Below are positions 5,972 to 61,141 of a stretch of DNA of 64,000 nucleotides, in pieces; the first letter of the stretch is position 1, and the number at the start of each line of letters is the position of its first letter. The position numbers and the translations under genes are program-made. The DNA is from Candidatus Krumholzibacteriia bacterium (lineage in GTDB: Bacteria; Krumholzibacteriota; Krumholzibacteriia; LZORAL124-64-63), in NCBI GenBank assembly GCA_041390065.1, contig JAWKQQ010000022.1, forward strand, positions 3,192 through 67,191. Direction: 5' to 3'. Below the pieces are notes generated by a model. It was given only the letters and a program-made list of their open reading frames with translations. It was not told the origin of the DNA and did no database searches.

Positions 5972-6022
5972 GGGCGCGCTTGCCGTCCGTCGTCCGGCCC
6001 TCCACCCCTTGGAGCGATCCCC

Positions 6023-8092: not shown

Positions 8093-8104
8093 GAGCGTCT
8101 CGTC

Positions 8105-9121: not shown

Positions 9122-9146
9122 GCCCCTTCGGGAAGGATGCTCGGCC

Positions 9147-10532: not shown

Positions 10533-10555
10533 ACGAAGACCTGGAGGCGAGCAAG

Positions 10556-12199
<1,644 letters not shown>

Positions 12200-12220
12200 G
12201 TCCGTGTCCCACGATCGGAG

Positions 12221-14398: not shown

Positions 14399-14516
14399 TG
14401 CCGGCCGCTTGACACCCGCCACCGGGATCCACTACGGTGCGGCCACGGGATCGGCGCCTGCCTCGCCCCGCAGCGGTGCCTCGCACCTGCAGCGCCCCCG
14501 GGGAGCACTGCACATC

Positions 14517-24764: not shown

Positions 24765-25115
24765 GGGCCTTCCGTCGGGTTGTACGTCCGCGCGGGGGGC
24801 GGGTGCCACCTGGCCCGGACGCGGACCCTTCTCCGCCGACCCCGGATCAGGCAAGATCATCACCGGAACGGATCGGGGACCCATTCCCCGGCATCCTAAA
24901 CGATCTGGTCTGGAGGGGAATCACGATGTGGATGCCGACGCTGGCCGGTGGGCTCATGGTGGCCGCCGCGACTCCGCACGCCGTGCCCAGGGCGATCGCG
25001 CCCACCCAGGTCGTCGCCCGAGATCCCTGCCGCGCGATCGACCGACGGCGATACGGCCCGCGGAGGCGGGCCGGGCGGATCCGAGGGTCGACGATCGCTC
25101 CGACGGGGCGCCGGA

Positions 25116-26329: not shown

Positions 26330-26383
26330 GTGCCACCTCGTTGAGGAGATCAGTCCGGAATTCGATCCGGCAAATATGATAAC

Positions 26384-26416
26384 AAAAAGTCGGCCGCCGG
26401 GAAAGGGCGGCCGACT
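26384..26416 (-). terminator. Rho-independent terminator of citrate synthase
   Basis: On the minus strand: AGTCGGCCGCC, a loop, GGCGGCCGACT (11-bp perfect stem), then TTTTT. It starts about 24 nt after the gltA stop, in an AT-richer gap. Confidence 0.8.
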
Positions 26417-26439
26417 CTTCGTTACGGAAAACCTTCAGA

Positions 26440-27741
26440 TCAGCTGTTCTTCACGAAATCCTGCAGCCACTTGATGGTCACGGACTTCGGGCGCTCGATG
26501 GGCGCCATCATGGCCCGGTTCCAGACCAGCTGGGCGCACATGCCCATCACGCGCGAGACCGAGAACATCACCGTGTAGTAGGGGAACTCGGTCATGCCGT
26601 AGTGGTAGAGCAGGGCGCCGCTGGCCGCATCCACGTTGGGCCAGGGGTTCTTGGCCTTGCCCTGCTCCTTGAGCACCTCGGGCACCACCTTGAAGACGCG
26701 GTCGACGATCTGCACGATCTCGTCGTCCGGGAAGTGCTTCATGCCGAAGTCCTTCAGGGCGGTGAAGCGCGGGTCGGTGATGCGCAGCACGGCGTGGCCG
26801 TAGCCCGGGATCACGCGGCCGGAGTTGAGGGTCTCCCAGGCCACCTCGCGCAGCTGCTCCTCGGTGGGCAGGCCGCCGAACTGCTCGCGCACCTGCAGCA
26901 CCCAGTTCAGGCACTCCTGGTTGGCCAGGCCGTGCAGCGGGCCGGAGAGCCCGTTGAGGCCGGCGGACACGCTGTAGAAGGCGTCGCTCAGGGCCGAACC
27001 TACCAGCGAGCAGGTGTGCGCCGACACGTTGCCGCCCTCGTGGTCGCAATGCAGCACGAGGTAGAGGCGGATCATGTCGGCGGCCTCGGGGTTCTTCTGG
27101 CTCAGGCCGAGCATGTGGGCGAAGTTCTGCGAGTAGTCGTACTCCGGCTTGGGCTCGATCCGGGGGCCCTTGTTGAAACGCTTGCGGTAGATGGCCGCCG
27201 CCAGGGTGGACATGCGGGCCTGCAGGGTCAGGCAGTCCTCGAGCATGGGCTTCCAGAACTCGTCCTTCGCCATGCCCGCGTTGTAGGCCTCGACGAACTT
27301 GCTCTCGCCCTGCATGCTCAGGATCGCGGTGTCCAGCATGCACATGGGGTGCGAGTCGGCCGGCATGGCGTCGAGCACCTGCCACACGTACTGCGGCACC
27401 ACCGCGCGCTTGGCGAATTCCGTGCGCAGGTGCTCGTGGGCCGCCTTGTCGGGGAGCGCGCCGGTGCAGAGCATGTAGAAGATGTCCTCGGCGGTCCGGT
27501 CGGTGAGCTGTGCGAGCGGGGTGCCGCGGATCAGCAGGCCCTTCTCCGGCGGGACCTCGCTGGTGTCGCAGACCATGCTCTTGACGCCGCGGGCTCCACC
27601 CATGGCCTGGGCCACGGTCACCTGGCTGATGACCTTGTCACCGTGATTCTTGGCCAGTTCGGTCAGCTGACCCCGCCAGACGGGGATCTGCTGCTCCAGA
27701 CGTTCAAAGAGATTCGCCATGCCTCGTGACTCCCTCGTCAT
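26440..27741 (-). CDS. gltA: Citrate synthase
   Basis: Track ORF of 433 aa. GGARGVKSMVCDTS, HCDHEGGNVSAHT and GYGHAVLRITDPR are present. The start may instead be the second ATG at 27720 (MANLFERLE), which has a GAGGGA upstream. Confidence 0.95.
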   Translation of the reverse strand: MTRESRGMANLFERLEQQIPVWRGQLTELAKNHGDKVISQVTVAQAMGGARGVKSMVCDTSEVPPEKGLLIRGTPLAQLTDRTAEDIFYMLCTGALPDKAAHEHLRTEFAKRAVVPQYVWQVLDAMPADSHPMCMLDTAILSMQGESKFVEAYNAGMAKDEFWKPMLEDCLTLQARMSTLAAAIYRKRFNKGPRIEPKPEYDYSQNFAHMLGLSQKNPEAADMIRLYLVLHCDHEGGNVSAHTCSLVGSALSDAFYSVSAGLNGLSGPLHGLANQECLNWVLQVREQFGGLPTEEQLREVAWETLNSGRVIPGYGHAVLRITDPRFTALKDFGMKHFPDDEIVQIVDRVFKVVPEVLKEQGKAKNPWPNVDAASGALLYHYGMTEFPYYTVMFSVSRVMGMCAQLVWNRAMMAPIERPKSVTIKWLQDFVKNS

Positions 27742-27790
27742 CCCCGGGAGTGGCCGCCGGGGCGTGGATTGCCTGCCGATTCCTTTGGAT

Positions 27791-27818
27791 ATACTAATTG
27801 AGTCGACGGTTGCGGCAA
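27791..27818 (-). promoter_or_regulatory. Candidate promoter of gltA
   Basis: On the minus strand: TTGCCG, a 16-nt spacer, then TAGTAT, in the AT-rich divergent region 27742-27905. Identified by eye only. Confidence 0.3.
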
Positions 27819-27905
27819 GATGGTAACTTGTTGTTGCATCGCCGAGAAGAGCCTATTTTGTTTGGCGAGCGAACGCCACCCCATCGAGACCGAGGAGGAC
27901 CCTGG

Positions 27906-28439
27906 ATGAACGACGACGTGCGGGAGTGCCTGGAGATCCTGGACAAGGCCGTGAAGTTCGAGGAGACCGGCATGAGCTTCTTCCTCGATCGCGCCGAGAA
28001 CGCACCCAGCGAGCTGGAACGCAACCTGTTCCGCTCCCTGGCCGAGGACGAGAAGGGCCACAAGGCCTACCTGCTGCAGCTCAAGGCCCAGCTTCTGGCC
28101 AACAACAACCCCGATGACATGCAGCCCGACGATGACGACGACCACAGGACGGCCCGGCAGATCTTCGAGGACGCCCTCGAGCGGGCCAGCGATCCCTACC
28201 ACGCGGAGTCCACCGAGCTCGAGATCATCAAGGGCGCCATGGACGTCGAGCGCAAGGGCTACACCATGTACACGGCGGCGGTCGCGTCGGTGAAGTCCGA
28301 GCGCGCCAAGGCCATCTTCGGCGCCCTCGCCCGCGAGGAGCAGCACCACTACAGCCTGCTCAAGAACACGTACGACTACATGGCCGACCCCGAGGCCTTC
28401 AATGGCTTCGACGAGAGCCCGATGCTCGACGGCGGCTAG
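27906..28439 (+). CDS. Ferritin-like diiron protein (rubrerythrin-type four-helix bundle, no rubredoxin domain)
   Basis: In frame with track ORF 27798..28439, ATG at 27906 after GAGGAGGA. It has two ExxH pairs (LAEDEKGH, AREEQHH). Confidence 0.65.
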   Translation: MNDDVRECLEILDKAVKFEETGMSFFLDRAENAPSELERNLFRSLAEDEKGHKAYLLQLKAQLLANNNPDDMQPDDDDDHRTARQIFEDALERASDPYHAESTELEIIKGAMDVERKGYTMYTAAVASVKSERAKAIFGALAREEQHHYSLLKNTYDYMADPEAFNGFDESPMLDGG

Positions 28440-28524
28440 GCCGGCGGCGCCGGAGCACCGCGAGCCACGATCCGACGGCCGCCTCTGCGGGGCGGCCGTC
28501 CCCTTGAGCCCCGAGAGGACCAGC

Positions 28525-29556
28525 GTGAGCGCAGCCCAGGATCTCTTCCGCGACGTGGTGGCCATGGCGCCCATGGCCCAGGGCGGCAACCTGCCGTACC
28601 GACGCCGCAGTACCGCGAGTACGGCGCAGCTCACCTGCAGCGAGATGGTGGTGGCCGACAAGCTGGTCAAGGGCGGCGAACGACCGCTCCTGCGCCACCA
28701 CGAGTCGGAGGACGTTCGGGATCCAGCTCTGCGGCAAGCATGCCGACACCCTGGCCGAGGGCGCCCGCATGGCCCGTCCGATGCCGGCGCCGCGTTCATC
28801 GACCTCAATTTCGGTTGTCCCATCGACCTCATCGTGCGGCGGGGCGGCGGGGCGGCCCTCCTGGAAGCCCCACCAAGCTGGCCCAGCTCGTGGCCGCCGT
28901 GCGGAGGCCGTGGACCGCTGTCGGTGAAGATCCGCAGCGGCTACAGCCGAGGACCGCATCAACGCCGTGGAGGTGGCCCAGCTCATCGAGGCCGAGGGCG
29001 CCGACGCGGTCGGCGTGGTGCACGGCCACCCGCGCCAGCGCTACAAGCGCAACGCCGACTGGGGGAAGATCATCGCCGCCGTGGCCGACGCCGTCGATCC
29101 CGGTCGTCGGCAACGGCGACTACGCCCTGGGACCTCGCGCGCCGGCGACGCGAGACCCGCGTCAGCTCCTTCCTCGTGGCCCGCGGCTGCCTCATCAAAC
29201 CCTGGGTGTTCCGCGAGCTCGCCACCGGCGAGGCCTGGTATCCCACGGTGGCCGAACGCTGGGGTGTCATGCGACGCTACCTCGACTTCGCGCTGGAGTA
29301 CTTCGGCGAGGACGAGAAGGGGCGCCAGCGCGCCCGCCGTTTCCTCCTCTGGCACCTTCATTTCTGGCACCGCTGGCGGCCCTACACCGAGGCCGATTTC
29401 GCCGCCCAGCTACCGGACTCGCTCATCCAGAGGCGCGAGGACGACCCGACGGACGACGATCCGGAGGCGGGGCTGCTCATGAGCCCGGACGAGGCCCAGC
29501 ACGAGGTGATCTGGGAACGGCTGCTGGTCGGGGATTTCCCGGGCGCCGAGCGTTGA
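28525..29556 (+). pseudogene. tRNA-dihydrouridine synthase (Dus3-like), N-terminal two thirds frame-broken
   Basis: Pieces across three frames: MAPMAQGGNLPYRR | QLTCSEMVVADKLVKGGERPLLRHHESEDV | FGIQLCGKHADTLAEGARMA | FIDLNFGCPIDLIVRRGGGAALLE | PTKLAQLVAAVRR | LSVKIRSGY | INAVEVAQLIEAEGADAVGVVHGHPRQRYKRNADWGKIIAAVADAV | VGNGDY. It is intact from SSFLVARGCLIKPWVFREL...RFLLWHLHFWHRW to the stop at 29556. Confidence 0.8.
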
Positions 29557-31149: not shown

Positions 31150-31350
31150 CTGTCCGTCCGGCGTCGTGTCCGGCCGGGCACACAACAACGGCGGCTCGAT
31201 GATCAGCGGAAGCCGGTGTGATTCCGGCGCGGCCCCGCCACTGTGAGCGGCGACGAACCCCGCACCATGCCACTGAGGACCCTCTCCCGGCTGGAGACGA
31301 CCTCGGGAAGGCGCGGCCAGTAGGACGACCCGCGAGCCAGGAGACCGGTC
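31150..31350 (+). promoter_or_regulatory. Cobalamin (B12) riboswitch
   Basis: The core GGAAGCCGGTGTGATTCCGGCGCGGCCCCGCCACTGTGA (B12 box GCCACTG) is followed by GCCACTG...GGGAAGG...GAGCCAGGAGACC. It lies directly upstream of a TonB-dependent receptor gene. Confidence 0.85.
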
Positions 31351-31390
31351 CCGAGCCCTTGTCCGTCACCTTCGTGGGAGAGGTACGGCA

Positions 31391-33517
31391 GTGTCGGTCC
31401 AGGGGACCGGGAGCCTCGCGCACCCTCGGGTGGCGCGTATCTTCCGACCGCATCGTCGTTTCCGGTTGCCGGCAAGCTCGCTCGCGTTCGCGTTCGCGCT
31501 CGTGGGCCTGGTCCGCGCCGTGCCCGCCGGGGCGGACCAGGCCCCGATCGCCGATCCGCCGCTCATGGCCGAGGCCGCCGCCGCCACCGTGGTGCTCGAC
31601 TCCATGGTGGTGCATGGCCGCGGCGTGGCCGAGCGCTTCTTCCCGATCGCGCCCGGCGTGGTGACGGTGGTCGAGCTGGACGACGAACGCGGCGGTGCGG
31701 ACCTCGGCGAACTGCTGGCCCGCGTGGCCGGCCTGCAGGTGCGTCGCTACGGCGGCCTCGGCGCCCAGGCGGTGCCCTCGATCCGCGGCTCGAGCGGCGC
31801 CCAGGTGCAGGTGCTGGTGGACGGCCTGCCGCTGGCCGATGCCCAGAACGGTGCCGTCGACATCTCGCTCTTGCCGCTCGAACGTTACGCCACCGCCGAG
31901 ATCCACCGCGGCCTCGTGCCGGTCGGCTTCGGCGGCATCGGCGGCGCCGGCGCCGTCGACCTGCGGACCCGGCCCGATGCCCATGGCACGAGCGTGCGGC
32001 TGTTCACCGGCAGCTTCGGCGACCTGGGCGGCCGCGTGTCCCACGGTCTGCGGTCGCGAGGCGGCCACCGGCGCCTGCTCGTGCTGGCCCACGGCCGCCG
32101 GCTCGACAACCGCTACGGGTTCACCCCGCGCATCCCCGCCGCCCAGGTCGACCTGTATCCCGACACCACCTGGACCCGCGCCAACGCCGACCTCGAGGAA
32201 TGGGGCTGGCTGGCGAGCGGCGAGCTGGAGGGTGCGCCGGGCCTCCTGCGCGCCTCGGTGGGGAGCTTCCGGCGCGACGGCGGCCGCCCCGGACCGTTCA
32301 ACCTTCCGTCGCCCCACGCCCGCGTGCGCCACGAGCGTCTGGACGCCCGCCTGGGGGCCGTCACGCGTGATCGCGACTGGACGGCGGACCTGAGCCTGGC
32401 GCGGGATCGGGGCCAGCTCATCGACACCGCCCGCGAGGTGGGGCACGACCCGGCCGGCGTCAACACGAGCGAGTCCGACGACGTGCTGGCGCGTGCGATC
32501 TGGTCGCCCTTGTGGCGCCTCGGCGCTGCCGACCTGGGCGTGACCGCCGGCGCCGAAGGCCGCCTGCAGTGGTACCGCGAATCCATCGCGGGCGACGCGC
32601 AGCCCCGGCGCAATCGCCGCAGCGTCGGCGCGTTCGCGAGCGCCAGCGTCGACCTGCCGGCCTGGCGGCTGGGTCTGACCCCGCAGTGGCGCTGGCAGCG
32701 CGTGCGCGACGACTTCCCGCCGGTGCCGAACCTGCCCTGGCTGCCGGAGGAACTGGGCGTGGTGCACCGGCAGGACGCGGTCTCGCCCGCGGTGAACGCC
32801 ACCGTCGCCATCCTGCCCGAGTCGCTCATCCTGCAGGCCCACTGGCACCACAGCGTGCGCCAGCCCACCTGGGTCGAACTGTTCGGTCAGCCCGGCGGCC
32901 TGGTGGGCAACCGGGAGCTCGTGCCCGAGGAGATCACCGGCCGCGACGTGGGCCTGCGCTGGACCCTGCCCGGCCGCAACGGCGTCCTGCGCGCCACCTG
33001 GTTCAGCCAGGTCACCGAGAAGACCATCCTCTGGTACGTCAGCGGCCTGGGACAGAGCAAGCCGTACAACGTCGGCCGGACCCGAGCCGCGGGCGTGGAG
33101 CTGGAGGGCGCGTGCACCCATCGGGCCGCCGAAGGCTACGTGGCGGCCACCTACCAGGGCGCCCATCACGGGCACGGCCAGGATCCCGTCTACCACGGCA
33201 AGCAGCTGCCCTTCCTCAGCGACTGGACCGTGTTCGCGGATCTCGGCCTGCGCCTGGACGCCTGGCGACCCGGCCTGCGTCTGCGTCACGAATCCGCGTC
33301 GTTCACCGATCTGTTCAACGACCCCGACGCCCGCGTGGCGCCCCGCACCAGCCTGGACCTGTCCCTGGCCCGCACCTTCGAGGGCGGCGTCTGGGGCGAC
33401 GGGCGGCGCGCCACCGTCACCGCCGAGGCCATCAACGTCACCGACCGGCAGCTCCACGACGTCGAAGGCTACCCCTTGCCGGGTCGGAGCCTGCGGCTGT
33501 CGCTGCACTGGCAATGA
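31391..33517 (+). CDS. btuB: TonB-dependent outer-membrane receptor (BtuB-like, riboswitch-controlled)
   Basis: Track ORF of 708 aa with GTG start after GGGAGAGG. Signal peptide present. Plug motifs: LARVAGLQVRRYGGLGAQAVPSIRGSSGAQVQVLVDGLPL. The C-terminal barrel ends in LRLSLHWQ. Confidence 0.85.
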   Translation: MSVQGTGSLAHPRVARIFRPHRRFRLPASSLAFAFALVGLVRAVPAGADQAPIADPPLMAEAAAATVVLDSMVVHGRGVAERFFPIAPGVVTVVELDDERGGADLGELLARVAGLQVRRYGGLGAQAVPSIRGSSGAQVQVLVDGLPLADAQNGAVDISLLPLERYATAEIHRGLVPVGFGGIGGAGAVDLRTRPDAHGTSVRLFTGSFGDLGGRVSHGLRSRGGHRRLLVLAHGRRLDNRYGFTPRIPAAQVDLYPDTTWTRANADLEEWGWLASGELEGAPGLLRASVGSFRRDGGRPGPFNLPSPHARVRHERLDARLGAVTRDRDWTADLSLARDRGQLIDTAREVGHDPAGVNTSESDDVLARAIWSPLWRLGAADLGVTAGAEGRLQWYRESIAGDAQPRRNRRSVGAFASASVDLPAWRLGLTPQWRWQRVRDDFPPVPNLPWLPEELGVVHRQDAVSPAVNATVAILPESLILQAHWHHSVRQPTWVELFGQPGGLVGNRELVPEEITGRDVGLRWTLPGRNGVLRATWFSQVTEKTILWYVSGLGQSKPYNVGRTRAAGVELEGACTHRAAEGYVAATYQGAHHGHGQDPVYHGKQLPFLSDWTVFADLGLRLDAWRPGLRLRHESASFTDLFNDPDARVAPRTSLDLSLARTFEGGVWGDGRRATVTAEAINVTDRQLHDVEGYPLPGRSLRLSLHWQ

Positions 33518-50269: not shown

Positions 50270-51814
50270 TCACGACGCGTCGGCCGTCGAATCGGCCGGC
50301 GCGTCGGCCACCGCCCAGGCGGTGCGGAAGGCCAGGCGCACCAGCTCGGTGTAGAGATCCCGGTTGAGCGTCTCCGGCGTGTCGCTGGGCTGGTGCAGGT
50401 GCGGGTAGCTGTTGGTGGTCACCCAGTAGAGGGTCGGGATGCCGGCCTCGTAGAACGGGGTGGCGTCGGCTCCGCCGCCGCTCCAGGTGTCGGCGACCAT
50501 CAGGCGGGCGCCAGCACGATCGAGGTCGCGGGCCAGCTGCCAGTGCGCCGGGTCGCTCTCGCCGCCGCCCACGCGGATCGAATCGCCGCAGGCCACGCAA
50601 TCCAGGTTGAACATGGCGGTGACGTGGTCGGCGGCGACCGTCGGATGCCCGACGTAGTAGCGCGCGCCCACGAGCCCGGATTCCTCACCGGCGAACAGCA
50701 CGAAGACCACGCTCCGGCGCGGGCGCACCTGCGCGCTGCTGAAGGCCTCGGCCAGGCGCAGGACGGCGGCGGCGCCGCTGGCGTTGTCGTTGGCGCCGGG
50801 AAAGTAGAGGTACGGCCCCTGGCGGCCGACGTGGTCGAGGTGGGCGCCGATCACCAGGACCTCGTCCTTCAGCAGCGGATCGCGGCCCGGCAGGCGGGCG
50901 ACGACGTTGCAGGTCTGGCGGGCGGGGTCGTAGCTGGCCTCGACGGCGATCGCGGCCCGTGCGTCGAGCGGACGGGAGGCGGGAACACGGGTCGAGTCGA
51001 TGCGGGCCTGGAGGCGGGCGCCGGCGCCCGTACCGCCGAGCAGGCGGTCGGCCAGGGCGTGGTCGATCTCCAGCTGCGGCAGGTCGGGCAGGTGCTCGCC
51101 CGGGCCATGCAGGACGCTGCCGATGGGGCCGTGGTCAGGACCGTCCTGGGCCTCGGCGTGCGGCACCTCGAACCACAGCATGGCCAGCGCACCGTGGTCG
51201 CCCGCCGTCCGGGCCTTGGCCCGCGGCGTGCTGCTGGCCCAGTCCCAGGCCACGGAGTCGGGCGACCACTGCGGGTTGCGCTTGAACACCAGCACGACCT
51301 TGCCGGCGACGTCGAGGTCGGCGTAGTCGTCGTAGCCGCGGGCGGGGGCGCTCAGGCCGTAGCCGGCGAACACGACGGGCGCGGTGACGGTGCCGCTGCC
51401 GGTGAAGCCGCGGCAGACGAAGTCTCGCCCCAGCACGGCGGCTTCGGTCTCGCCGCCGACGGTGACCGTCAGGCGCGGGGTGCCGAGGATCGCGTTGTGC
51501 TCGATGGGCAGCCGCTGCAGGTAGCCGCCGTCGTCCCCGGCGGGACGCAGCTTGAGCCGGTCGAAGCGGCGTGCGGCCCAGCGGGCGGCGGCTTCGTAGC
51601 CGGGGTCGCCGGCCAGGCGGCCCGCGAACGCGGGCTGGGTCAGGGTGGTGACGTCGGCCATCAGGGCCTGGCCGGTGATCGTGGCCAGGCCACGGGAGAC
51701 CGCGTCGGTGCGGGTGGACTGGCAGGCGGCCAGGACCAGCAGGCAGACCAGCACGGACGTCAGCGGGCGGACAACGGACCATGGACGCACGGGGCACCTC
51801 CAGGGAGCTGGCAC
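50270..51814 (-). CDS. M28-family metallopeptidase lipoprotein (PA domain plus aminopeptidase domain)
   Basis: Track ORF of 514 aa. Lipobox LLVLAACQ. VIGAHLDHVG, NDNASGAAAVL, FAGEESGLVGARYY and HQPSD are present. Confidence 0.85.
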   Translation of the reverse strand: MPAPWRCPVRPWSVVRPLTSVLVCLLVLAACQSTRTDAVSRGLATITGQALMADVTTLTQPAFAGRLAGDPGYEAAARWAARRFDRLKLRPAGDDGGYLQRLPIEHNAILGTPRLTVTVGGETEAAVLGRDFVCRGFTGSGTVTAPVVFAGYGLSAPARGYDDYADLDVAGKVVLVFKRNPQWSPDSVAWDWASSTPRAKARTAGDHGALAMLWFEVPHAEAQDGPDHGPIGSVLHGPGEHLPDLPQLEIDHALADRLLGGTGAGARLQARIDSTRVPASRPLDARAAIAVEASYDPARQTCNVVARLPGRDPLLKDEVLVIGAHLDHVGRQGPYLYFPGANDNASGAAAVLRLAEAFSSAQVRPRRSVVFVLFAGEESGLVGARYYVGHPTVAADHVTAMFNLDCVACGDSIRVGGGESDPAHWQLARDLDRAGARLMVADTWSGGGADATPFYEAGIPTLYWVTTNSYPHLHQPSDTPETLNRDLYTELVRLAFRTAWAVADAPADSTADAS

Positions 51815-51978
51815 GGGATCCTCGGGTCGACGCGCTCAGATATAGCGGCCACGGTTCTCGCGGTCAAACCTGCTCGCAGATGGATCCGTGGAGGATCGGG
51901 TTCCCGGATCGGCCCGGAGCGTGCTATCCTCGTGACGATCGATCAAGAAAACCGACTCCCGGCGTTCCGGAGACCCAC

Positions 51979-54210
51979 ATGCGCCGCATCATGTCCGCCG
52001 TCCTCGCCGTCTCGCTGCTGGCCGCCGCCACGGCCCTCGCCGTCCCGGTCACCTTCCAGGTCCGCATGGCCTATCAGGTGGAGCTCGGCGTCTTCGATCC
52101 GGCCGTGGACTCGGTCGATCTGGCCGGCACCTTCAACGGCTGGGGCGATCCCCTGATCCCGCTGGCCGACGCCGACGCCGACACCACCTACTCCGTCACC
52201 GTGGACGGCTTCGCGGCCGGCCAGGCGATCGAGTTCAAGTTCCGCATCAACGGCCAGTGGGACGGCAGCGAGGAGTTCCCGGGCGGCGGCCCCAACCGCC
52301 AGTACACGGTGCAACCGTCGGACAACGAGATCCTGGTCTGGTACGGCGACCAGGTGTCCCACGAACTCGAACTCGGAGAGCTCGCCTGGTGGAACGACAC
52401 CGTCTTCTACGAGCTGTTCGTGCGCAGCTTCCACGACTCCGACGGCGACGGCATCGGCGACTTCCAGGGCCTCATCCAGAAGCTCGACTACCTCAACGAC
52501 GGCGACCCGGCCACCGACACCGACCTCGGCGTCACCGGCCTGTGGTTGATGCCGATCAACGACTCGCCCAGCTACCATGGCTACGACGTGACCGACTACC
52601 GCGGCGTCAACCCGGACTACGGCACCCTGGCCGACTTCGAGGAGTTCCTCGCGGCCGCCCATGCGCGGGGCATCAAGGTGATCATCGACGATGTCATGAA
52701 CCACTGCTCCAGCCAGCACCCGTGGTTCACCGCGGCGGCGGCCGGCAATCCGGCCACCCGCGACTGGTTCCGCTGGTCCGCCGGCAATCCCGGCCAGACC
52801 GGGCCCTGGGGGCAGGTCGTCTGGCACTGGCACCCTTCGGGCTACTACTACGGCCTCTTCGGAGACGGCATGCCCGACCTCAACTACGAGACCCCCGCCG
52901 TCAAGGCCGAGATGTTCGACACCGCCGCCTGGTGGCTGGACACCGTGGGCGTGGACGGCTTCCGGCTCGACGCCGTCCTCTACATCTTCGAGGACGGCGA
53001 CCAGTTGCAGAACACGCCGGCCACCTTCCAGTTCTGGCACGACTTCAACGCGCACATCAAGGCCGTGGCGCCGGACGCCCTGTCCGTGGGCGAGGCGTGG
53101 ACGAACACGGGCACGGTGCTGCAGTACGTCAGCGACGATCGCCTCGACCTCTGCTTCGAGTTCGAGCTGGCCGGCGCCACCCTGGGCGCCGTCAACGCGG
53201 GCGACGCCGGCTACCTCGCCGCGAAGGCGCGCAGCGTCCACGACGTCTACCCCTATCTGCAGTTCGCCACCTTCCTGACGAATCACGACCAGGACCGCGT
53301 CTTCACCGTCCTCGGCGAGGATGAGGGCAAGAACCGCGTGGCGGCCGGCATCTACCTCACCTTGCCCGGCGTTCCGTTCCTCTACTACGGCGAGGAGATC
53401 GGCATGGTGGGCAGCGGCGCCCATGAGTTCATCCGCAGCCCCATGCAGTGGGACGGCGGTCCGGGTGCCGGGTTCACCACCGGCGTGCCCTGGCAGCCGC
53501 TCAACGGCAACTACCCGCAGTACAACGTCGCCGACGAGCAGCAGGATCCCGGGTCGCTCTGGCGCTGGTACCGCCAGCTGATCGACGTGCGGCGCGCGAC
53601 GCCGGCCCTGCGGCGCGGGGAGTTCCTGGCCCTGGAGAGCTCGGCCGGGGCGGTGCTCGCGTTCCTGCGGCGAGACGCCGGGCGGACGGTGCTGTGCGTG
53701 GCGAACACCGGCGCCGCCGCGCAGCCGTCGCTGGCGTTGACCGGGTCGGCCGACGCGCTGACGCCCGGCGAGCACGGGCTGATCAACCTGCTCGACCCGG
53801 ACGACACGCCGCTGGTGTCGGTGAGTTCGGCGTTCGCGTTGACCGGGCTGTCGCTGGCGGGCTACGAGGTGGCCGTCTACCGGTTCACGAGCGCCACCGG
53901 GGTGCAGCCGGACGGGAGCCCGCTGCCGGGTGCGCGGATCCGCCTGGAGCAGAACGTTCCGAACCCCTTCAATCCGGCCACCCGCATCCGCTACGCGCTG
54001 AGCGACGCCGGCAACGCGCGCCTGGCGGTCTTCGACCTGGCTGGCCGGCAGGTGGCCGTGCTCTGGGATGGGGTGCAGGCGGCCGGGACGCACACCGCGC
54101 GCTGGGACGGCCGTGACCACGCGGGGCGGTCGGTGGGCGCGGGCGTCTACCTGGCCCGCCTGGAAGCTGGCGGCGAGACGACGTCCATGAAGCTGGTGCT
54201 CGCGCGATAG
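51979..54210 (+). CDS. Secreted GH13 alpha-amylase-family enzyme with N-terminal carbohydrate-binding module and FlgD-Ig/T9SS-like C-terminal domain
   Basis: Met67 of track ORF 51781..54210. LWLMPINDSPSYHGYDVTDY, DVMNHCS, GFRLDAV, VGEAW and FLTNHDQDR are present. The C-terminus is NVPNPFNPATRIRYAL...LAVFDLAGRQVAVL...GVYLARLEAGGETTSMKLVLAR. Confidence 0.9.
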   Translation: MRRIMSAVLAVSLLAAATALAVPVTFQVRMAYQVELGVFDPAVDSVDLAGTFNGWGDPLIPLADADADTTYSVTVDGFAAGQAIEFKFRINGQWDGSEEFPGGGPNRQYTVQPSDNEILVWYGDQVSHELELGELAWWNDTVFYELFVRSFHDSDGDGIGDFQGLIQKLDYLNDGDPATDTDLGVTGLWLMPINDSPSYHGYDVTDYRGVNPDYGTLADFEEFLAAAHARGIKVIIDDVMNHCSSQHPWFTAAAAGNPATRDWFRWSAGNPGQTGPWGQVVWHWHPSGYYYGLFGDGMPDLNYETPAVKAEMFDTAAWWLDTVGVDGFRLDAVLYIFEDGDQLQNTPATFQFWHDFNAHIKAVAPDALSVGEAWTNTGTVLQYVSDDRLDLCFEFELAGATLGAVNAGDAGYLAAKARSVHDVYPYLQFATFLTNHDQDRVFTVLGEDEGKNRVAAGIYLTLPGVPFLYYGEEIGMVGSGAHEFIRSPMQWDGGPGAGFTTGVPWQPLNGNYPQYNVADEQQDPGSLWRWYRQLIDVRRATPALRRGEFLALESSAGAVLAFLRRDAGRTVLCVANTGAAAQPSLALTGSADALTPGEHGLINLLDPDDTPLVSVSSAFALTGLSLAGYEVAVYRFTSATGVQPDGSPLPGARIRLEQNVPNPFNPATRIRYALSDAGNARLAVFDLAGRQVAVLWDGVQAAGTHTARWDGRDHAGRSVGAGVYLARLEAGGETTSMKLVLAR

Positions 54211-54274: not shown

Positions 54275-54745
54275 TCACGCTCGTGGTCGCGTCGGCGTAG
54301 CCTGGACGAGCGACCCCACCGTCTCCCGCAGTTCCAACGGCTGCCGGGCGCCGGACGGTCCGACGGACTCGGACCACGGCACGGTGCCGTCCTTGCCGAT
54401 GAGCACGGTCGCACGGTCGGAGATGGAGGCTTGCCCGAGCCAGACGCCGTACTTCCGGGAGACCTCGCCCTTGGGGTGGAAATCGGCCAGCAGCGGGACG
54501 TCGATCCGCTCGAAGCTCTTGGGCCGCGCCATGGGTCCTTCCGCGACGATCTCGGCCAGACCTCGGGCACCGCTCGGGGCCTGGCGTCTCCCACCGCATG
54601 CCGCAATTCATGCCGCCGGTTGATCGTCAGCCGGGGCTGATGGTGGAGCCGCGAGCCGGCCATGCCGCGCGGCGTAAGCCCGTCGGCGTCCAGACTCCTC
54701 GGCCCGGCGCAGCGTGGCCAGCCTGCGGTGTCGTCGCGGGGGACC
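54275..54745 (-). pseudogene. bcp: Bcp/AhpC-TSA-type peroxiredoxin, frame-broken N-terminal half; 5-prime end not resolved
   Basis: Track ORF 54275..54532 gives the C-terminal half (IDVPLLADFHPKGEVSRKYGV...DRATVLIGKDGTV). Upstream pieces in other frames read LDADGLTPRG, PADDQP and GGMNC, resembling the FYPxDDTPGC region. No start codon could be assigned. Confidence 0.5.
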
Positions 54746-54757
54746 GGGGGCCGCCGC

Positions 54758-54919
54758 TCAGCTCTTCGGTTGCTCGGCGCCGGCCGCCAGGCTCCGCTGG
54801 TAGGCCTTCCAGCCCGGGCACCAGGTGGTGTGCCATCGCCAGAGCCGGGCCAGCAACGACCCGGGCCTCGCCTCCGCCCGTCGGCGCCACCTGCAGGCCT
54901 CGCAGCCGGATGCCGCCAT
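54758..54919 (-). CDS. Small Cys/Trp-rich hypothetical protein, 53 aa (below the ORF-track cutoff)
   Basis: Hand translation: MAASGCEACRWRRRAEARPGSLLARLWRWHTTWCPGWKAYQRSLAAGAEQPKS*. The ATG at 54919 lies 5 nt after GGAGG and 9 nt after the gatD stop. No family was recognised with confidence. Confidence 0.4.
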   Translation of the reverse strand: MAASGCEACRWRRRAEARPGSLLARLWRWHTTWCPGWKAYQRSLAAGAEQPKS

Positions 54920-54928
54920 GACCGCCTC

Positions 54929-56317
54929 CTACTTCCAGTGCTCGGAGATGAACGTGTCCACCTCGGGCAGGCCGCCCTGCATCACGAGGTAGCCGTTGTG
55001 GGGCTCGCGCTCGGTGATCTCGCCGCAGATCGGCGTGAGCATCAGGCGCTTGACCTCGTCGCGGTCGTGGGTCTGGCCCAGCACCCAGCCCAGCTTCACG
55101 TAGGCCACCTCGGGGGTCATGTTGGCGGCCGGCACCACGCCGAGCTCCATGATCTCGCGGCCGGTCTCGTAGACGTACATCTGCACGTAGCCCCACAGGG
55201 TCTGTACGGTCATGTAGACGTGGACGCCGGCCGCGCGGGCGCGGTCCAGCGCCGGGTAGAGGGGCTTGTTCACGTGGCCGAGGCCGGTGCCGGCGATCAC
55301 GATGCCCCGGTAACCGTTGGCCACCAGGCTGTCGATGATGTCGGGCTTCATGTTCGGGTAGTAATAGACCAGCGACACGCGGTCGTCGAAGCAGGCGTTG
55401 AGCTTGACCCTGCGCTCGGGATCGCGTCGGCGGTAGGTCGGGTTGATGGGGGTCACGCCGGAGGGATCGACCTTGGCCAGGGGCACGTCGCTCAGGGTGC
55501 GGAAGGTGCTGCGGTAGCTGCTGTGCATCTTGCGGACGCGGGTGCCGCGATGCAGCAGACCGTACTGGTCGCTCGTGGGGCCGAACATGCAGACCATCAC
55601 CTCGGCGATGTCGCTGGTGGCGGCCGTCCGGGCGGCGTTGATGAGGTTGATGGCGGCGTCCGAGCTGGGCCGGTCGCTGGAGCGCTGGCTGCCCACCATC
55701 ACCACGGGCACGGGCAAGTCCTGCAGCATGAAGGTGAGGGCCGCGGCCGTATGGTGCATGGTGTCGGTGCCGTGACCGACCATGATGCCGTCGACGCCCT
55801 TGTCGATCTCCGCGGCGATGGCCCGCGCCGTGCCCATCCACTGCTCGGGCCCCATGTTCTCGGAGAACACGCCGTAGATCTTCTCCGTCTCCATGTTGCA
55901 GACGTCGGCCAGCTCGGGCACCGAGCCGTAGAGCTCGCCGGGCGAGAAGGCCGGGATGACGGCGCCGGTGCGGTAGTCGAGCCGCGAGGCGATGGTGCCG
56001 CCGGTGCCGAAGAGCTTGACCCGGGGCTTCCCGGGATCGTAGGGGAATTCCTTCTCGGGGATCTTGTAGTTGGCTTCCTTGCGGCCGTGGATGGTGATCC
56101 GCTCGACGGTGTCCGACCGCACGCCGATGTTGTAGCCGGTGTCGAGCTTCAGGACGATGTGCTCGGCGTCGGCGGTCTCGCTGCGGGGCATGACCAGCCC
56201 GGTGAAGTCGCCGCGGGTGGTGTGCAGGGTGGCCTGGCTCCAGACCCGGGCGTTCTCGCGTTGGAGCACGTCGAGGGTGGGAGACCGGTAGCCGGGGAAG
56301 TCGTTCTGCGTGCTCAT
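54929..56317 (-). CDS. gatD: Glu-tRNA(Gln) amidotransferase subunit D (archaeal-type, asparaginase-like)
   Basis: This is the last 462 codons of track ORF 54929..59410, ATG at 56317. KLFGTGGTIASRLDYRTGAV, GIMVGHGTDTMHHTAAAL and VVMVGSQRSSDRPSSDA are present. It overlaps the gatE stop (ATGA). Confidence 0.88.
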   Translation of the reverse strand: MSTQNDFPGYRSPTLDVLQRENARVWSQATLHTTRGDFTGLVMPRSETADAEHIVLKLDTGYNIGVRSDTVERITIHGRKEANYKIPEKEFPYDPGKPRVKLFGTGGTIASRLDYRTGAVIPAFSPGELYGSVPELADVCNMETEKIYGVFSENMGPEQWMGTARAIAAEIDKGVDGIMVGHGTDTMHHTAAALTFMLQDLPVPVVMVGSQRSSDRPSSDAAINLINAARTAATSDIAEVMVCMFGPTSDQYGLLHRGTRVRKMHSSYRSTFRTLSDVPLAKVDPSGVTPINPTYRRRDPERRVKLNACFDDRVSLVYYYPNMKPDIIDSLVANGYRGIVIAGTGLGHVNKPLYPALDRARAAGVHVYMTVQTLWGYVQMYVYETGREIMELGVVPAANMTPEVAYVKLGWVLGQTHDRDEVKRLMLTPICGEITEREPHNGYLVMQGGLPEVDTFISEHWK

Positions 56318-58215
56318 GCGAGGGCCTCCTTCACCCAGCCGCGCACCGTGCGGCCGGGCACCCGGCCGCGCAGGCCGGTCATCACGTGAGCCATCACGAA
56401 CGCCTCGCCATCGGGCCCGGTGCGGGGGCCGTCGGGCACGGTCGTCAGGGCCTGGTCGAACCTGCGTCGGGCGTCGTCCTCGGCGAGCGCCGTGAGCGGC
56501 TCGTCCTCGGCCAGGTAGACGCCCTCGGGCAGCAGCTCGCCGCTCGCCAGACGGCGGCATACCCGGCGCCACCAGTCGCCGGCGGCGGCGAGGCTCGCGG
56601 GTCGGGGGCAGCTGCGGTCCAGCAGCAGGCTGGCCAGCGTGTGCGGGGTCAACGAGCCGCCGATCTCGTCCTGCAGGTCGAGGAACAGGGGGTAGGCGCG
56701 GTGGATGCTCAGGCGCTGCGCCAGGTCGCGGCCCACGCCCAGGTTCTCGAGGCGGCTCCGCCGCTCCCAGGGACGCTCGGGCAGGGTGGCGAAGATGGCC
56801 TCCAGGCGCGCATCGGGGATGCCGATGGGCGGCAGGTCGGTGTCCGGGTACATGCGGTCGGCGCCGGGCAGGATGCGCTCGAAGCCGTTGGTCCCGTCGT
56901 CGAGGGCCTGGCGGGTCTCGCTCGGCACGCCGCCGACGGCGTCGCGGGCGCGGATGACGATTTCCCGCGCGGCGGTCTCGGCATCCTGCCGCCGCCCCCA
57001 GACCACCAGGATCGGCACGGTCGGTTCGACGGCGCAGACGCCGCAGATCTTGTCCCACTCCGCGCCCGAGAACGTATGGGCATCCTGGGTGGAGCAGGCC
57101 ACGTTCGGCAGGTCGTCGATGCAGGCGATGACGCGGATCCGGTCGGAGAACTCCTTGAGCATGGTGGTGCGCGGCTGCGTGGGCGCGGTGACCAGACCCT
57201 CGAAGCCCGGCAGGGGGACGGCCAGCACGGTGGCGCCCTTCTCGACAGCCTTGCTGACGTTGCGGAACTCGGTGCCGCGCACGTTGGGCGTCACGTCGTA
57301 CCAGCGCTCGGGTAGGTCGGCGACGGTGACCCTGCGGCGCTGCAGCTCGCGCTGGATCGCCACCAGGCTCGTCTGGCGCAGGGCCTCGTTGTGCACCAGG
57401 CGGGGAATGTCGCGCAGGCTGGGGACGCCCTTGATCTCGATGCGGGTGCCGCCGGTCACCGACACGTTGACGTCCTGGCGGCCGGCGCCGGGTCCGGTGC
57501 GCACCAGGCCCGACACGCGGGCCAACCAGCGGATCAGCTGGCCCACCTCGGCCACCTCCCAGGGCGTCATCATGTCGGGGTCGGTGACGGTCTCGATGAG
57601 CGGCATGCCCAGGCGGTCGGTGCGGTAGTGGCGCAGGTGGCCGCGGTCGGAGACCTCGCGGCAGCTGTCCTCCTCGATGGAGATCTGCCGGATGCGGATC
57701 GTGCGTCCCTTGTAGGGGATCGCGCCGTCGGTGTCGACGATGGCCGTGCGCTGGAAACCGGTCGGAATGCTGCCGTCGAGGTACTGCTTGCGGGTGATGT
57801 GCACCTCGCTGACGATGTTGCAGCCCAGCAGGCGGGCGATGCCGAAGCTGCGATCGAGGGCCAGGTCGTCGATCTCGAACGGCGGCGCGTCGTCCATCTC
57901 GTAGGTGCAGACGGTCTCGTTGTTCAGCAGGTAGACGATGTCCTTCCTGGTCTTGAACTCCATGAGCGCGGTGCCGTCGTACTCGCCCATCTCCGACAGG
58001 GTGGGCCGCATGTGGCGCAAGACCTCGGCGTGGTGCTCGGTGCTGTAGCGGCCGGCGGGGCAGCGGCAGAAGAGCTTGCGACGGGTGAGCAGCTGCTGGT
58101 GGACCTCGAGGCCGGACATCAGTCCGAGGTCGGCGTAGCCGGCGGCGTCGAGCTCGCCGAACAGGGGCAGGGGCCTCAGCAGCCAGGGCTCGGTGACCGA
58201 GTGGCGAGGGGACAT
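56314..58215 (-). CDS. gatE: Glu-tRNA(Gln) amidotransferase subunit E (archaeal-type GatB paralog with insertion domain)
   Basis: Met46 of track ORF 56314..58350 (633 aa). GLMSGLEVHQQLLTRRKLFCRCP, TYEMDDAPPFE, ITRKQYLDGSIPTGFQRTAIV, DRLGMPLIETVTDPD and GRQDVNVSVTGGTRIEIKGV are present. Its length and its pairing with gatD argue for GatE rather than GatB. Confidence 0.85.
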   Translation of the reverse strand: MSPRHSVTEPWLLRPLPLFGELDAAGYADLGLMSGLEVHQQLLTRRKLFCRCPAGRYSTEHHAEVLRHMRPTLSEMGEYDGTALMEFKTRKDIVYLLNNETVCTYEMDDAPPFEIDDLALDRSFGIARLLGCNIVSEVHITRKQYLDGSIPTGFQRTAIVDTDGAIPYKGRTIRIRQISIEEDSCREVSDRGHLRHYRTDRLGMPLIETVTDPDMMTPWEVAEVGQLIRWLARVSGLVRTGPGAGRQDVNVSVTGGTRIEIKGVPSLRDIPRLVHNEALRQTSLVAIQRELQRRRVTVADLPERWYDVTPNVRGTEFRNVSKAVEKGATVLAVPLPGFEGLVTAPTQPRTTMLKEFSDRIRVIACIDDLPNVACSTQDAHTFSGAEWDKICGVCAVEPTVPILVVWGRRQDAETAAREIVIRARDAVGGVPSETRQALDDGTNGFERILPGADRMYPDTDLPPIGIPDARLEAIFATLPERPWERRSRLENLGVGRDLAQRLSIHRAYPLFLDLQDEIGGSLTPHTLASLLLDRSCPRPASLAAAGDWWRRVCRRLASGELLPEGVYLAEDEPLTALAEDDARRRFDQALTTVPDGPRTGPDGEAFVMAHVMTGLRGRVPGRTVRGWVKEALA

Positions 58216-58358
58216 GGCAACCACCAGGGGCTCGAGGATGGACGGGGCGCCGCGTCGGGGCGGTCGGGAAGCGGGGCAAATATAGGTTTTCGCCGGGAAC
58301 CACGCACGAAAAAACGACTTGCAGGTCATACCGCGGTGATCCGGGAGCAAGCGGGGGG

Positions 58359-58387
58359 TTGCAACCTGCTGAAAATCGCAGTAATCT
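58359..58387 (+). promoter_or_regulatory. Candidate sigma70-type promoter of rex
   Basis: TTGCAA (58359-58364), a 17-nt spacer, then TAATCT (58382-58387), in an AT-rich island. Confidence 0.45.
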
Positions 58388-58406
58388 GTTCAAAATATCA
58401 CAGATT
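58383..58406. promoter_or_regulatory. Rex-box-like palindromic operator
   Basis: AATCTGT-N10-ACAGATT is a perfect 7-bp inverted repeat. The inner TGTTCAAAATATCACA resembles the Rex operator TGTGAA-N4-TTCACA. It overlaps the -10 and the expected transcription start of the rex promoter. Confidence 0.5.
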
Positions 58407-58480
58407 AAAGGTCGGTCAGCGACGGTTCGATCGACCGCGCACGCATGCCGGCGCCCCAACCAGCCGCGGGAGACAGGGTC

Positions 58481-59161
58481 ATGGAACGGACGATCCGCAG
58501 TTGCGATGTGCCCGAAGCCACCATCCAGCGCCTGCCGCTCTACCTCGAGAAGCTCAAGCTGCTGCAGGGGATCGGCGTGGAGGATGTGTCGTCTCGTCAA
58601 CTCGCCGAGTCGTTGGACATCAAGGCCAGCCAGTTGCGGCACGACTTCCACTACTTCGGCGGTTTCAGCCGGCCGGGGCGCCCCTACCGCGTCGCGATCC
58701 TCGTCGATGCGCTCGAGCAGATCATCGGCGTCGATACGCCCGTGCCCACGGTCATCGTCGGCGCCGGCCATCTCGGCCAGGCCCTCGCCAACTATCCGGG
58801 ACTCGAATTGCAGGGCTTTCCGATCCGCGGCATCTTCGACGCGAACCCCAAGCTGCAGGGGCTGGAGATCCGCGGCCAGGCGATCCGCGACCTCGATGAA
58901 CTGGAAACCGTCTGTCGGAAAGAGGGCGTCAAGATCGGCGTGATCACCGTTCCGGCCACCTCGGCCCAGGATGTGGCCAACCGCCTGGTGGCCGCCGGGG
59001 TGACCGGACTGATGAACTTCGCGCCGACGGAACTGAAGGTACCCGCCCACGTTTCCGTGCGGCACGAGCGGCTCTCTGTGGGGTTCATGGCGCTGAGCTT
59101 CAAGGTCAAGTGCGGACAGAGCGCTCGGGCCAAGACCGAGATCGTCACCGACAAGGACTGA
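58481..59161 (+). CDS. rex: Redox-sensing transcriptional repressor Rex
   Basis: Met13 of track ORF 58445..59161. IPEATIQRLPLYLEKLKLL, SSRQLAESLDIKASQLRHDFHYFG and VGAGHLGQALANY are present. Confidence 0.9.
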   Translation: MERTIRSCDVPEATIQRLPLYLEKLKLLQGIGVEDVSSRQLAESLDIKASQLRHDFHYFGGFSRPGRPYRVAILVDALEQIIGVDTPVPTVIVGAGHLGQALANYPGLELQGFPIRGIFDANPKLQGLEIRGQAIRDLDELETVCRKEGVKIGVITVPATSAQDVANRLVAAGVTGLMNFAPTELKVPAHVSVRHERLSVGFMALSFKVKCGQSARAKTEIVTDKD

Positions 59162-60662: not shown

Positions 60663-61141
60663 GCGCGGGCCTGCGCCAGCAGGCGGGTCAACGTCGCGCC
60701 GACGCCGCGGAGGGTGTAGGGATCGTCGACGTCGGGTTCGGTTCCCGGACGCTCGAAATGGGGACGCTCGTCGTTGAGCCGGCCCCATGCCATGTCCACT
60801 TCCCGCACCAGATCCTCCAGCCATCCCATCGCCTCCAGCCGACCCGGCAACCAGACGGCGAGCAGGCTCGCCGGACGGTCGACATGCGCCTCGAGGAGTT
60901 CGGGGGCAGCTTCGAGATGCCGCAGCAGCACCGTACGGAGCGAGGAATCAGGCGCCTCGAGGTGCTGGCGTAGCCACAGGTCGGCCGCCAGCAGGGCGCG
61001 CTGGATCACCGGCGTGGGGCTCGCGCCGCGCAGGTTGTCGCCGCCGTCACGGCCGGCCAGCGCGCCGGCCAGGCCGGTGCGGCGACCCAACCGGGCTTCC
61101 TGCTCGATCCGGCGTTTCTCGTCGTCGGAGAAGTCGGGCAT
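60647..61141 (-). CDS. Hypothetical protein, 164 aa
   Basis: This is the last 164 codons of track ORF 60647..61669 (MPDFSDDEKRRIEQEARLGRR...). The composition is coding-like but no family was recognised. Its 3-prime end overlaps gph by 16 nt (convergent). Confidence 0.5.
   Translation of the reverse strand: MPDFSDDEKRRIEQEARLGRRTGLAGALAGRDGGDNLRGASPTPVIQRALLAADLWLRQHLEAPDSSLRTVLLRHLEAAPELLEAHVDRPASLLAVWLPGRLEAMGWLEDLVREVDMAWGRLNDERPHFERPGTEPDVDDPYTLRGVGATLTRLLAQARAHAEA

Follow-up and report, generated by a model that had tools for sequence, protein, structure and literature searches.

The closest described relatives of the operon considered here are the archaeal tRNA-dependent amidotransferase GatDE, the bacterial amidotransferase GatCAB and, for one of its two proteins, the type I L-asparaginases. 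GatE and GatB are paralogues, and GatD has the asparaginase fold. In the aminoacyl-tRNA field GatDE, for which structures are available from Methanothermobacter thermautotrophicus (2D6F) and Pyrococcus abyssi (1ZQ1), serves as an archaeal signature protein, and reviews published in 2009 (PMC2811023), 2021 (PMC8007984) and 2022 (PMC8762117 and PMC9499178) call it archaea-only. Its supposed absence from bacteria underlies arguments on the entry of glutamine into the genetic code, on why archaea did not gain GlnRS and on what the last universal common ancestor contained (PMC2330236, PMC9499178). In the window, by which we mean the whole 64,000-nucleotide stretch analysed here, from contig JAWKQQ010000022.1 of a Candidatus Krumholzibacteriia bacterium, we observed a gatE-gatD operon. 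With a probability of roughly 0.7, we consider that it encodes a bona fide heterodimeric tRNA-dependent amidotransferase GatDE, that this enzyme belongs to an old and, by label, nearly all-bacterial clade, and that it has been inherited vertically within the Krumholzibacteria. It is a bacterial variant of a known enzyme and not a new kind of system, but one that would surprise specialists: our full-text literature searches found no paper describing a bacterial GatDE. The names GatD and GatE are already given to these bacterial genes by annotation pipelines, so that the raw fact is visible in databases. The operon has the following features:

56314-58215, minus strand: gatE, 633 amino acids, kinase/transamidase subunit; GatB/E cradle, AspRS-like insertion, helical domain and predicted, divergent three-helix YqeY-like tail
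54929-56317, minus strand: gatD, 462 amino acids, glutaminase subunit; GatD N-terminal domain and asparaginase-type fold
56314-56317, minus strand: ATGA in which the stop of gatE overlaps the start of gatD, indicative of translational coupling (read from the sequence)
56325-56331, minus strand: Shine-Dalgarno sequence AAGGAGG for gatD, within the 3' end of gatE and 7 nucleotides before the ATG (read from the sequence)

The first-pass annotation of this DNA, made from the sequence alone, had placed the pair at 54929-58215 with these sizes and with the ATGA overlap, in exact agreement with the sequence and the list of open reading frames (ORFs). In that list the gatE start is an ATG lying 45 codons inside a longer ORF that begins with TTG, and gatD forms the 3' portion of a long, spurious, high-GC ORF. 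The identical four-nucleotide overlap occurs in the relatives L001, L003 and L086-L088, and translation of the two subunits would be coupled through it, together with the Shine-Dalgarno sequence.

Comparison with the archaeal enzyme reveals the same two-subunit composition and the same domains in both subunits, namely GatD_N followed by an asparaginase fold with the Thr/Thr-Asp/Lys residues in GatD, and a cradle, an AspRS-like insertion, a helical domain and, in the structural model, a three-helix tail in GatE. The His/Glu/Glu magnesium site and the basic loop beside the tRNA's first base pair are conserved in the window protein and its bacterial clade, and a profile of the members of this clade from outside the Krumholzibacteria matches both solved GatE chains from one end to the other. 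There are also differences: the window GatE has an identity of only about 35-38% to these solved archaeal GatE proteins and falls in a separate clade; the bacterial clade carries the signature KQYLDGSIPTGFQRT, where archaeal sequences have RKxxIDGSNxxGFQRT; the GXXAXGX motif of the archaeal GatE tail is replaced; the bacterial genes usually form a gatE-gatD operon; and the tRNA(Gln) of the host would be expected to have the bacterial U1-A72 pair and not the archaeal A1-U72 pair.

The bacterial GatCAB enzymes (Staphylococcus aureus, 2DF4 and 3IP4; Thermus thermophilus, 3KFU; Aquifex aeolicus, 3H0L) perform the same chemistry and presumably the same cellular job in bacteria, and GatB and GatE have a cradle catalytic domain and a YqeY-like C-terminus in common. 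However, the ammonia subunit of GatCAB is the amidase GatA, whereas GatDE uses the asparaginase-fold GatD and has no GatC, and GatE contains the AspRS-like insertion and lacks the 3-10 turn and the Lys-rich tail motif of GatB (PMC2811023). The type I L-asparaginases of Pyrococcus and Thermococcus (1WLS, 5OT0) have their fold and catalytic motifs in common with residues 98-436 of GatD; unlike them, GatD has the extra GatD_N domain, is coupled to gatE and scores much higher against GatD models and structures.

Profile searches identify both subunits. Against the NCBIfam model TIGR00134 (gatE_arch) the window GatE scores 380.8 bits, above the cut-off of 319.55, and against PRK04028 it scores 453 bits, 3 below the cut-off of 456; both matches end near residue 532. 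GatB models reach only 57-121 bits on this protein, far below their cut-offs of 315-680. Among solved chains, the strongest phmmer matches are the archaeal GatE chains 1zq1_C (1.8e-94) and 2d6f_C (6.8e-85), with GatB chains far weaker. Pfam GatB_N matches at 6e-46, and its 277-position hidden Markov model is stretched over residues 34-470, leaving room for an insertion of about 160 residues; the GatB-like core with an insertion that had been noted from the sequence alone is thus seen here as well. An AlphaFold2 (AF2) model calculated from a 46-sequence alignment (pLDDT 91.1, pTM 0.87) has 1zq1_C as its top Foldseek match (E 1.6e-50, TM 0.82 on the target), followed by 2d6f and then by GatB chains. 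The insertion segment of this model gives weak Foldseek matches to AspRS, at about 2e-3. Pfam GAD has no match in the window GatE itself, and other members of the bacterial clade have PF02938; from the model, we consider GatE to contain an AspRS-like (GAD) insertion domain, which GatB does not have. The predicted magnesium ligands H39, E181 and E208 align with H15, E157 and E184 of M. thermautotrophicus GatE and with their equivalents in Aquifex GatB, and these columns are invariant in the 46-sequence alignment. The motifs EEDxxR, RQDxNxS and RMYPDTD are conserved.

GatD scores 516.9 bits against TIGR02153 (gatD_arch; cut-off 324) and 505.9 bits against PRK04183 (cut-off 310), so that both subunits lie above curated equivalog cut-offs and the identification as GatD and GatE, already proposed in the first-pass annotation, stands in place of a GatB paired with an ordinary asparaginase. 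Pfam finds GatD_N (9.7e-13), Asparaginase and Asparaginase_C. Against solved GatD chains the protein scores 406 (1zq1_A) and 401 bits, and against any asparaginase at most 144 bits, although the subfamily model TIGR00519 (asnASE_I) is also passed, with 386 bits against a cut-off of 260.5. Of the GatD motifs, GTGGTIAS at 104-111 and HGTDTM at 182-187 are present as had been pointed out, and RVRKMH is found at 260-265; T105, T184-D185 and K263 within them align with P. abyssi GatD. We take these four residues to be the catalytic ones. On these alignments, the catalytic machinery of the window GatDE is intact.

The exhaustive protein search, which covered 1.84 billion representatives, returned about 45 full-length GatE clusters at 40-58% identity to the window protein, after which identity drops to 33-42%. 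More than 120 homologue clusters are 64-89% identical to the window GatE and, where named, belong to Krumholzibacteria. We also scanned one genome per GTDB species and obtained at least 600 pattern matches, at least 597 of which encode a GatE relative; the best 80 of these were examined by record title, some titles being doubtful, notably those with 'binchicken' labels. All of the best 80 are 44-55% identical to a member of the bacterial clade, and their titles are bacterial, from many phyla, except for two labelled Thermoplasmatota (L030 and L072). The groups named include Ignavibacteria, Melioribacteraceae, other Bacteroidota, Chlorobiota, Rhodothermaceae, Phycisphaerae, Planctomycetota, Aminicenantes, other Acidobacteriota, Myxococcota, Fermentibacteria/Aegiribacteria, Neomarinimicrobiota and Krumholzibacteriota. 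Closed chromosomes with a GatE of this clade are among the results of the scan (CP070718.1, OY970271.1 and OY760517.1), and another, CP070727.1, was found separately. GatDE is therefore not restricted to Archaea: the host of the window is bacterial, and so are many phyla among the best 80. The first-pass annotation had implicitly treated the locus as an oddity, a premise that does not survive these counts; the anomaly belongs to the textbook statement and not to this contig.

Neighbour-joining (NJ) trees split the GatE clusters into two groups. The named members of the first are all bacterial (Krumholzibacteria, CSSED10-310, 'Deltaproteobacteria', Calditrichia, KSB1, Aminicenantes and Desulfaltia), and those of the second all archaeal (Heimdall-, Thor- and Odinarchaeota, Thermoprotei, Thermoplasmata/Thermoplasmatota and the two PDB enzymes). 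A long branch separates the bacterial clade, which includes the window GatE, from all named archaea. Within the clade the sequences group largely by phylum, a pattern pointing to inheritance that was mostly vertical, with some transfer from one phylum to another. Such a phylogeny had been proposed as a check on the first reading of the locus, and we rooted it, again by NJ, on three partial GatB sequences transcribed from PDB alignments. In the rooted full-data tree bacterial and archaeal GatE are reciprocally monophyletic, with bootstrap values of 71/100 for the bacterial clade and 22/100 for the archaeal group; given these values, we regard the bacterial clade as real; it may be either the sister group of archaeal GatE or a lineage inside it. 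The archaeal GatE proteins most similar to the bacterial clade are those of Asgard archaea. In most loci gatD directly follows gatE, and the contexts across the clade include SecA, ECF sigma factors and RND pumps.

L030 and L072, from records titled Thermoplasmatales / Thermoplasmatota archaeon, are species-representative metagenome-assembled genomes (MAGs) with closely related bacterial-clade gatE genes that fall near the base of the clade; in both, gatD lies upstream in divergent orientation, and L030 has about 35% GC and a glnA downstream. Pfam searches of the genes flanking gatE in L030 found nothing diagnostic of the domain of origin. Mis-binning or a wrong label would account for these two loci, or else a transfer between the domains that bears on how the clade arose.

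By homology, the most likely function of the operon is the glutamine-dependent conversion of Glu-tRNA(Gln) to Gln-tRNA(Gln). In this scheme, GatD would act as an asparaginase-fold glutaminase that hydrolyses glutamine to release ammonia, and the GatE cradle would bind the acceptor end of Glu-tRNA(Gln), supplied by a non-discriminating GluRS, with H39, E181 and E208 as the magnesium site. GatE would then phosphorylate the γ-carboxyl group of the glutamate with ATP and amidate it to give Gln-tRNA(Gln). Independent genomic support for the link to glutamine comes from the glutamine synthetase gene glnA, which lies directly beside gatE in 7 of the 86 related loci. These seven carry labels of different phyla; glnA is upstream of gatE in six of them, while in L030 it is downstream. 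A linkage this frequent is far above chance. The seven genes are:

L005:8558-9967: glnA beside gatE
L036:8510-9934 (Krumholzibacteriota): glnA beside gatE
L025:3485-4954: glnA beside gatE
L080:158-1591: glnA beside gatE
L054:2-802: glnA beside gatE
L015:2915-5065: glnA beside gatE
L030:12026-13327: glnA beside gatE

Several observations weigh against the assignment of the locus to a canonical GatDE making Gln-tRNA(Gln). We infer both the reaction and the tRNA substrate of bacterial GatDE by homology to the solved archaeal enzymes. The archaeal enzyme reads the A1-U72 pair, and also the D-loop, of its tRNA, whereas bacterial tRNA(Gln) normally has U1-A72 (PMC2330236). The GXXAXGX tail motif, which in archaeal GatE has been implicated in rejecting Asp-tRNA(Asn) as opposed to Glu-tRNA(Gln) (PMC2811023), is absent from the window protein, which has ...GPDGEAFVM...; the consensus of the bacterial clade has an Arg-containing segment in its place, and archaeal sequences retain G..A...G. 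Pfam GatB_Yqey has no match in the tail of the window GatE or in its 120 closest relatives. Searches for gatCAB, glnS, asnS and tRNA(Gln) in the window and in the 1.41 Mb of related loci found none of them, with the exception of one glnS. This gene occurs in the Bacteroidota MAG L060, on a contig of 1.02 Mb, where gatE is at 9971-11887 and gatD at about 11734-13029; glnS (13267-14949, minus strand; TIGR00440, 715.7 bits, cut-off 425.8) follows immediately after gatD in convergent orientation. GlnRS and GatDE thus co-occur in this MAG, and a bacterium with GatDE may therefore have a second possible route to Gln-tRNA(Gln).

Other searches of the same loci bear on the same question. An hmmsearch with a GatE profile over six-frame ORFs of the window and the 86 loci found no GatB paralogue and no second GatB/E-like ORF; motif scans of the related loci found only the glnS of L060 and no amidase-type GatA; and ARAGORN runs on the window and on 60 loci gave no tRNA(Gln). 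In L006, about 200 nucleotides upstream of gatE (9723-9799, plus strand), ARAGORN reports a tRNA Glu(CUC) with a tRNA(Glu)-like D-arm. Its first pair is U1-A72 (it starts with T and has A before the discriminator), which is normally a mark of bacterial tRNA(Gln) and tRNA(Asn), and its anticodon is one base from that for Gln (CUG).

We interpret the tail of the window GatE as divergent and not missing, since the last part of the AF2 model folds into three confident helices (579-591, 600-612 and 621-632) and the terminal M..M..LRGR..G..V motif is retained. The alignment of this protein to the NCBIfam models and to the bacterial-clade profile is lost after residues about 532-564. Bacterial members from outside the Krumholzibacteria mostly match Pfam GatB_Yqey and often GAD. 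Residues ~533-633 evolve much faster in the Krumholzibacteria subclade of the window than elsewhere in the bacterial clade.

Since the archaeal enzyme reads A1-U72 and the D-loop, and since the bacterial clade has another segment in place of GXXAXGX, tRNA recognition is expected to have shifted, and a shift in the tRNA specificity of bacterial GatDE is possible. The likeliest of the rival explanations is that in at least some bacteria GatDE is an accessory or re-specified amidotransferase working alongside GlnRS and/or GatCAB, acting on Asp-tRNA(Asn), on both Asp- and Glu-tRNA as bacterial GatCAB does, or as a condition-specific back-up, and not as the essential route to Gln-tRNA(Gln). The genuine glnS adjoining gatE-gatD in L060 favours it, as do the replacement of GXXAXGX by an Arg-containing segment, given the proposed role of that motif in rejecting Asp-tRNA(Asn) (PMC2811023), and the fact that bacterial tRNA(Gln) and tRNA(Asn) have U1-A72 in common (PMC2330236). 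Moreover, a 2014 survey (PMC3927822, text and Additional file 2) credits both GlnRS and GatCAB to Ignavibacterium album and Phycisphaera mikurensis, cultured members of two groups in which GatDE-bearing MAGs occur, a link to the GatDE-bearing MAGs that holds at the level of the group. However, GatDE was not found in the cultured strains themselves, a profile search for it in Ignavibacterium album and Melioribacter roseus having returned only MAG-derived names, and the co-occurrence of GatDE and GlnRS consequently rests on one MAG locus. The AspRS-like insertion, which has been proposed to clash with a non-discriminating AspRS (PMC2330236), is kept, and archaeal GatE and the bacterial clade agree in the length and sequence type of the basic loop that faces the first tRNA base pair (KVRRGxG in the bacterial-clade consensus against KVKRGLG in archaea; LVRTGPG in the window protein). 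The glnA linkage fits the use of glutamine and is silent on which tRNA is the substrate. Weighing these points, we regard a re-specified enzyme, which the first-pass annotation had raised as a repurposed one, as rather unlikely.

Tentatively, one may go further and suppose that bacterial GatDE is an ancient, domain-specific lineage, derived from a GatB/GatE duplication before the split of the domains or from one very early transfer, that has its own tRNA rules (U1-A72, with the Arg-rich tail segment in place of GXXAXGX), has an Asp-tRNA(Asn) or dual-specificity role in lineages encoding GlnRS, and functionally replaces GatCAB. We offer this as a conjecture that is rather unlikely to hold.

Returning to a vertically inherited bacterial GatDE as the preferred reading, its place in the host genome is the next point to consider. 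Recent horizontal transfer from an archaeon, or a contig mis-assembled or mis-binned from archaeal and bacterial DNA, would accord with the traditional view of GatDE as confined to archaea (PMC2811023, PMC8762117, PMC9499178) and with the Thermoplasmatota labels of L030 and L072, but we consider it very improbable. The window encodes a TonB-dependent receptor, CheA, an MprF-like protein, Rex, a SPOR protein, an HAD hydrolase, carA/carB and citrate synthase; the first-pass annotation had called the context bacterial on the strength of, among others, the receptor, Rex and SPOR, these three of which we confirm, and had described a uniform GC-rich composition, which we find to range from 0.65 to 0.74 in GC. 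The operon cannot be distinguished from its flanks: the tetranucleotide correlation of 54929-58215 with the whole window is r = 0.971, against an all-window mean of 0.979 (sd 0.007) and at the 10.7th percentile, and the codon-usage deviation of the two genes is 0.044-0.045, within the 0.027-0.098 of other window genes. The GC content at third codon positions (GC3) of the two genes is 0.96-0.97.

The gatE-gatD pair also recurs in Krumholzibacteria relatives on independent contigs of 1.24-3.84 Mb in a shared bacterial gene order, usually with rex, SPOR and HAD genes upstream and, on the downstream side, either a che cluster or a block of M28/M1 peptidase genes. Closed or nearly closed records with GatDE include ERZ21831104 ctg97507l (3.84 Mb, Krumholzibacteria) and ERZ25039549 contig_7410 (2.37 Mb). 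L086, on a contig of 2.37 Mb, shares with the window the order M28-M1-hexapeptide-PALP-TrkA-DUF1573, and Omp85/BamA, TamB and SecA genes lie near gatDE in relatives. As the composition and codon usage match those of the flanks and the gene order recurs on megabase contigs, we exclude chimerism and recent import. The top archaeal match to the window GatE, at 42% identity compared with 46-89% for bacterial relatives, and the long branch between the bacterial clade and all named archaea argue in the same direction. Two outcomes raised when the locus was first read can thus be settled: the contig is not a chimera with archaeal DNA, against which both the composition and the independent syntenic contigs speak, and, of an ancient or a lateral acquisition, an ancient one fits best, the genes being ameliorated, syntenic and members of a deep clade, while a recent lateral transfer falls away. 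Estimated by the NG86 method against two relatives, the ratio of nonsynonymous to synonymous substitution rates (dN/dS) of gatDE is 0.19-0.46, values that are probably inflated because the extreme GC3 compresses dS.

That the pair is an ordinary GatB of GatCAB next to an ordinary type I L-asparaginase, an idea to which the paralogy of GatE and GatB, the asparaginase fold of GatD and the passed asnASE_I cut-off lend a little colour, is scarcely credible in view of the low GatB scores, the insertion of about 160 residues absent from GatB, the GatD_N domain, the gap between the GatD and asparaginase scores, and the lack of a nearby gatA or gatC. The window GatE was also tried specifically as the GatB of a GatCAB and rejected, the best GatB model scoring 121.1 bits against a cut-off of 338 and no GatA being found.

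A deep and, by label, nearly all-bacterial clade spanning the FCB group, PVC, Acidobacteriota and Myxococcota changes the picture of GatDE as an archaeal signature. It makes questions testable on the recognition of U1-A72 tRNA(Gln) by GatE, on whether GatDE displaced GatCAB in these phyla, and on why GatDE is sometimes encoded beside glnS or glnA.

Upstream of gatE, the intergenic region and the divergent neighbouring gene contain the following features:

58277-58284, minus strand: TATATTTG, candidate -7 promoter element, beginning 69 nucleotides upstream of the gatE ATG
58382-58407, no strand assigned: perfect 8-bp inverted repeat TAATCTGT-N10-ACAGATTA, operator-like, between gatE and rex
58445-59161, plus strand: rex, redox-sensing repressor (Pfam Put_DNA-bind_N and CoA_binding), divergent from gatE

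The element TATATTTG is identical at -69 in the window, -77 in L001 and -63 in L086, each time with an upstream T-run, which in the window lies ~25-30 nucleotides further upstream. It fits TAnnTTTG, which we take to be the -7 consensus of Bacteroidetes and the FCB group, and it may be the gatE promoter, in which case the gatDE operon would be transcribed from a promoter of its own. Scans of 54500-58700 for sigma-70 promoters and intrinsic terminators found nothing. A CTGTGA...ACAG palindrome is present at the matching relative position in L001 and not in L086, and the window palindrome differs from the usual Rex box (TTGTGAA...TTCACAA). The rex gene is found at the matching position in L001, L086 and L087, whereas L003 and L088 do not have it there; we count it as a conserved neighbour that cannot be shown to belong to the gatDE system.

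Features elsewhere in the window are:

5939-13722, plus strand: oxidative pentose-phosphate cluster tkt-gnd-zwf-pgi-pgl-rpiA (transketolase, 6PGDH, G6PDH, PGI, 6-phosphogluconolactonase and RpiA)
16312-18687, plus strand: MprF-like gene with an aminoacyl-phosphatidylglycerol synthase C-terminal domain
31208-31345, plus strand: cobalamin riboswitch (Rfam RF00174, 88.5 bits), at the 5' end of the TonB-dependent receptor ORF
31277-33517: TonB-dependent receptor ORF, its listed start overlapped by the cobalamin riboswitch
51781-54210, plus strand: alpha-amylase-family ORF with the C-terminal tail …NVPNPFNPATRIRY…
60666-60756, plus strand: ARAGORN 'tRNA-???' of 91 nucleotides, its anticodon two bases long, shortly after the HAD hydrolase gene

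Because Rfam finds no tRNA at 60666-60756, the 'tRNA-???' is probably a false positive. Since the riboswitch overlaps the listed start of the receptor ORF, we probably have here a BtuB-type gene for B12 uptake that truly begins further downstream. The MprF-like gene at 16312-18687 encodes another potential aminoacyl-tRNA-consuming enzyme. The tail NVPNPFNPATRIRY of the amylase-family ORF resembles the FlgD-Ig and Por-secretion sorting domains annotated on neighbouring peptidases in L086, a likeness that hints at type IX-like secretion in the Krumholzibacteria lineage. The only compositionally deviant stretch of the window is 25000-29000 (GC 0.65-0.68, with the lowest tetranucleotide correlation, 0.94), which covers a metallo-beta-lactamase-fold gene, citrate synthase and neighbouring ORFs.

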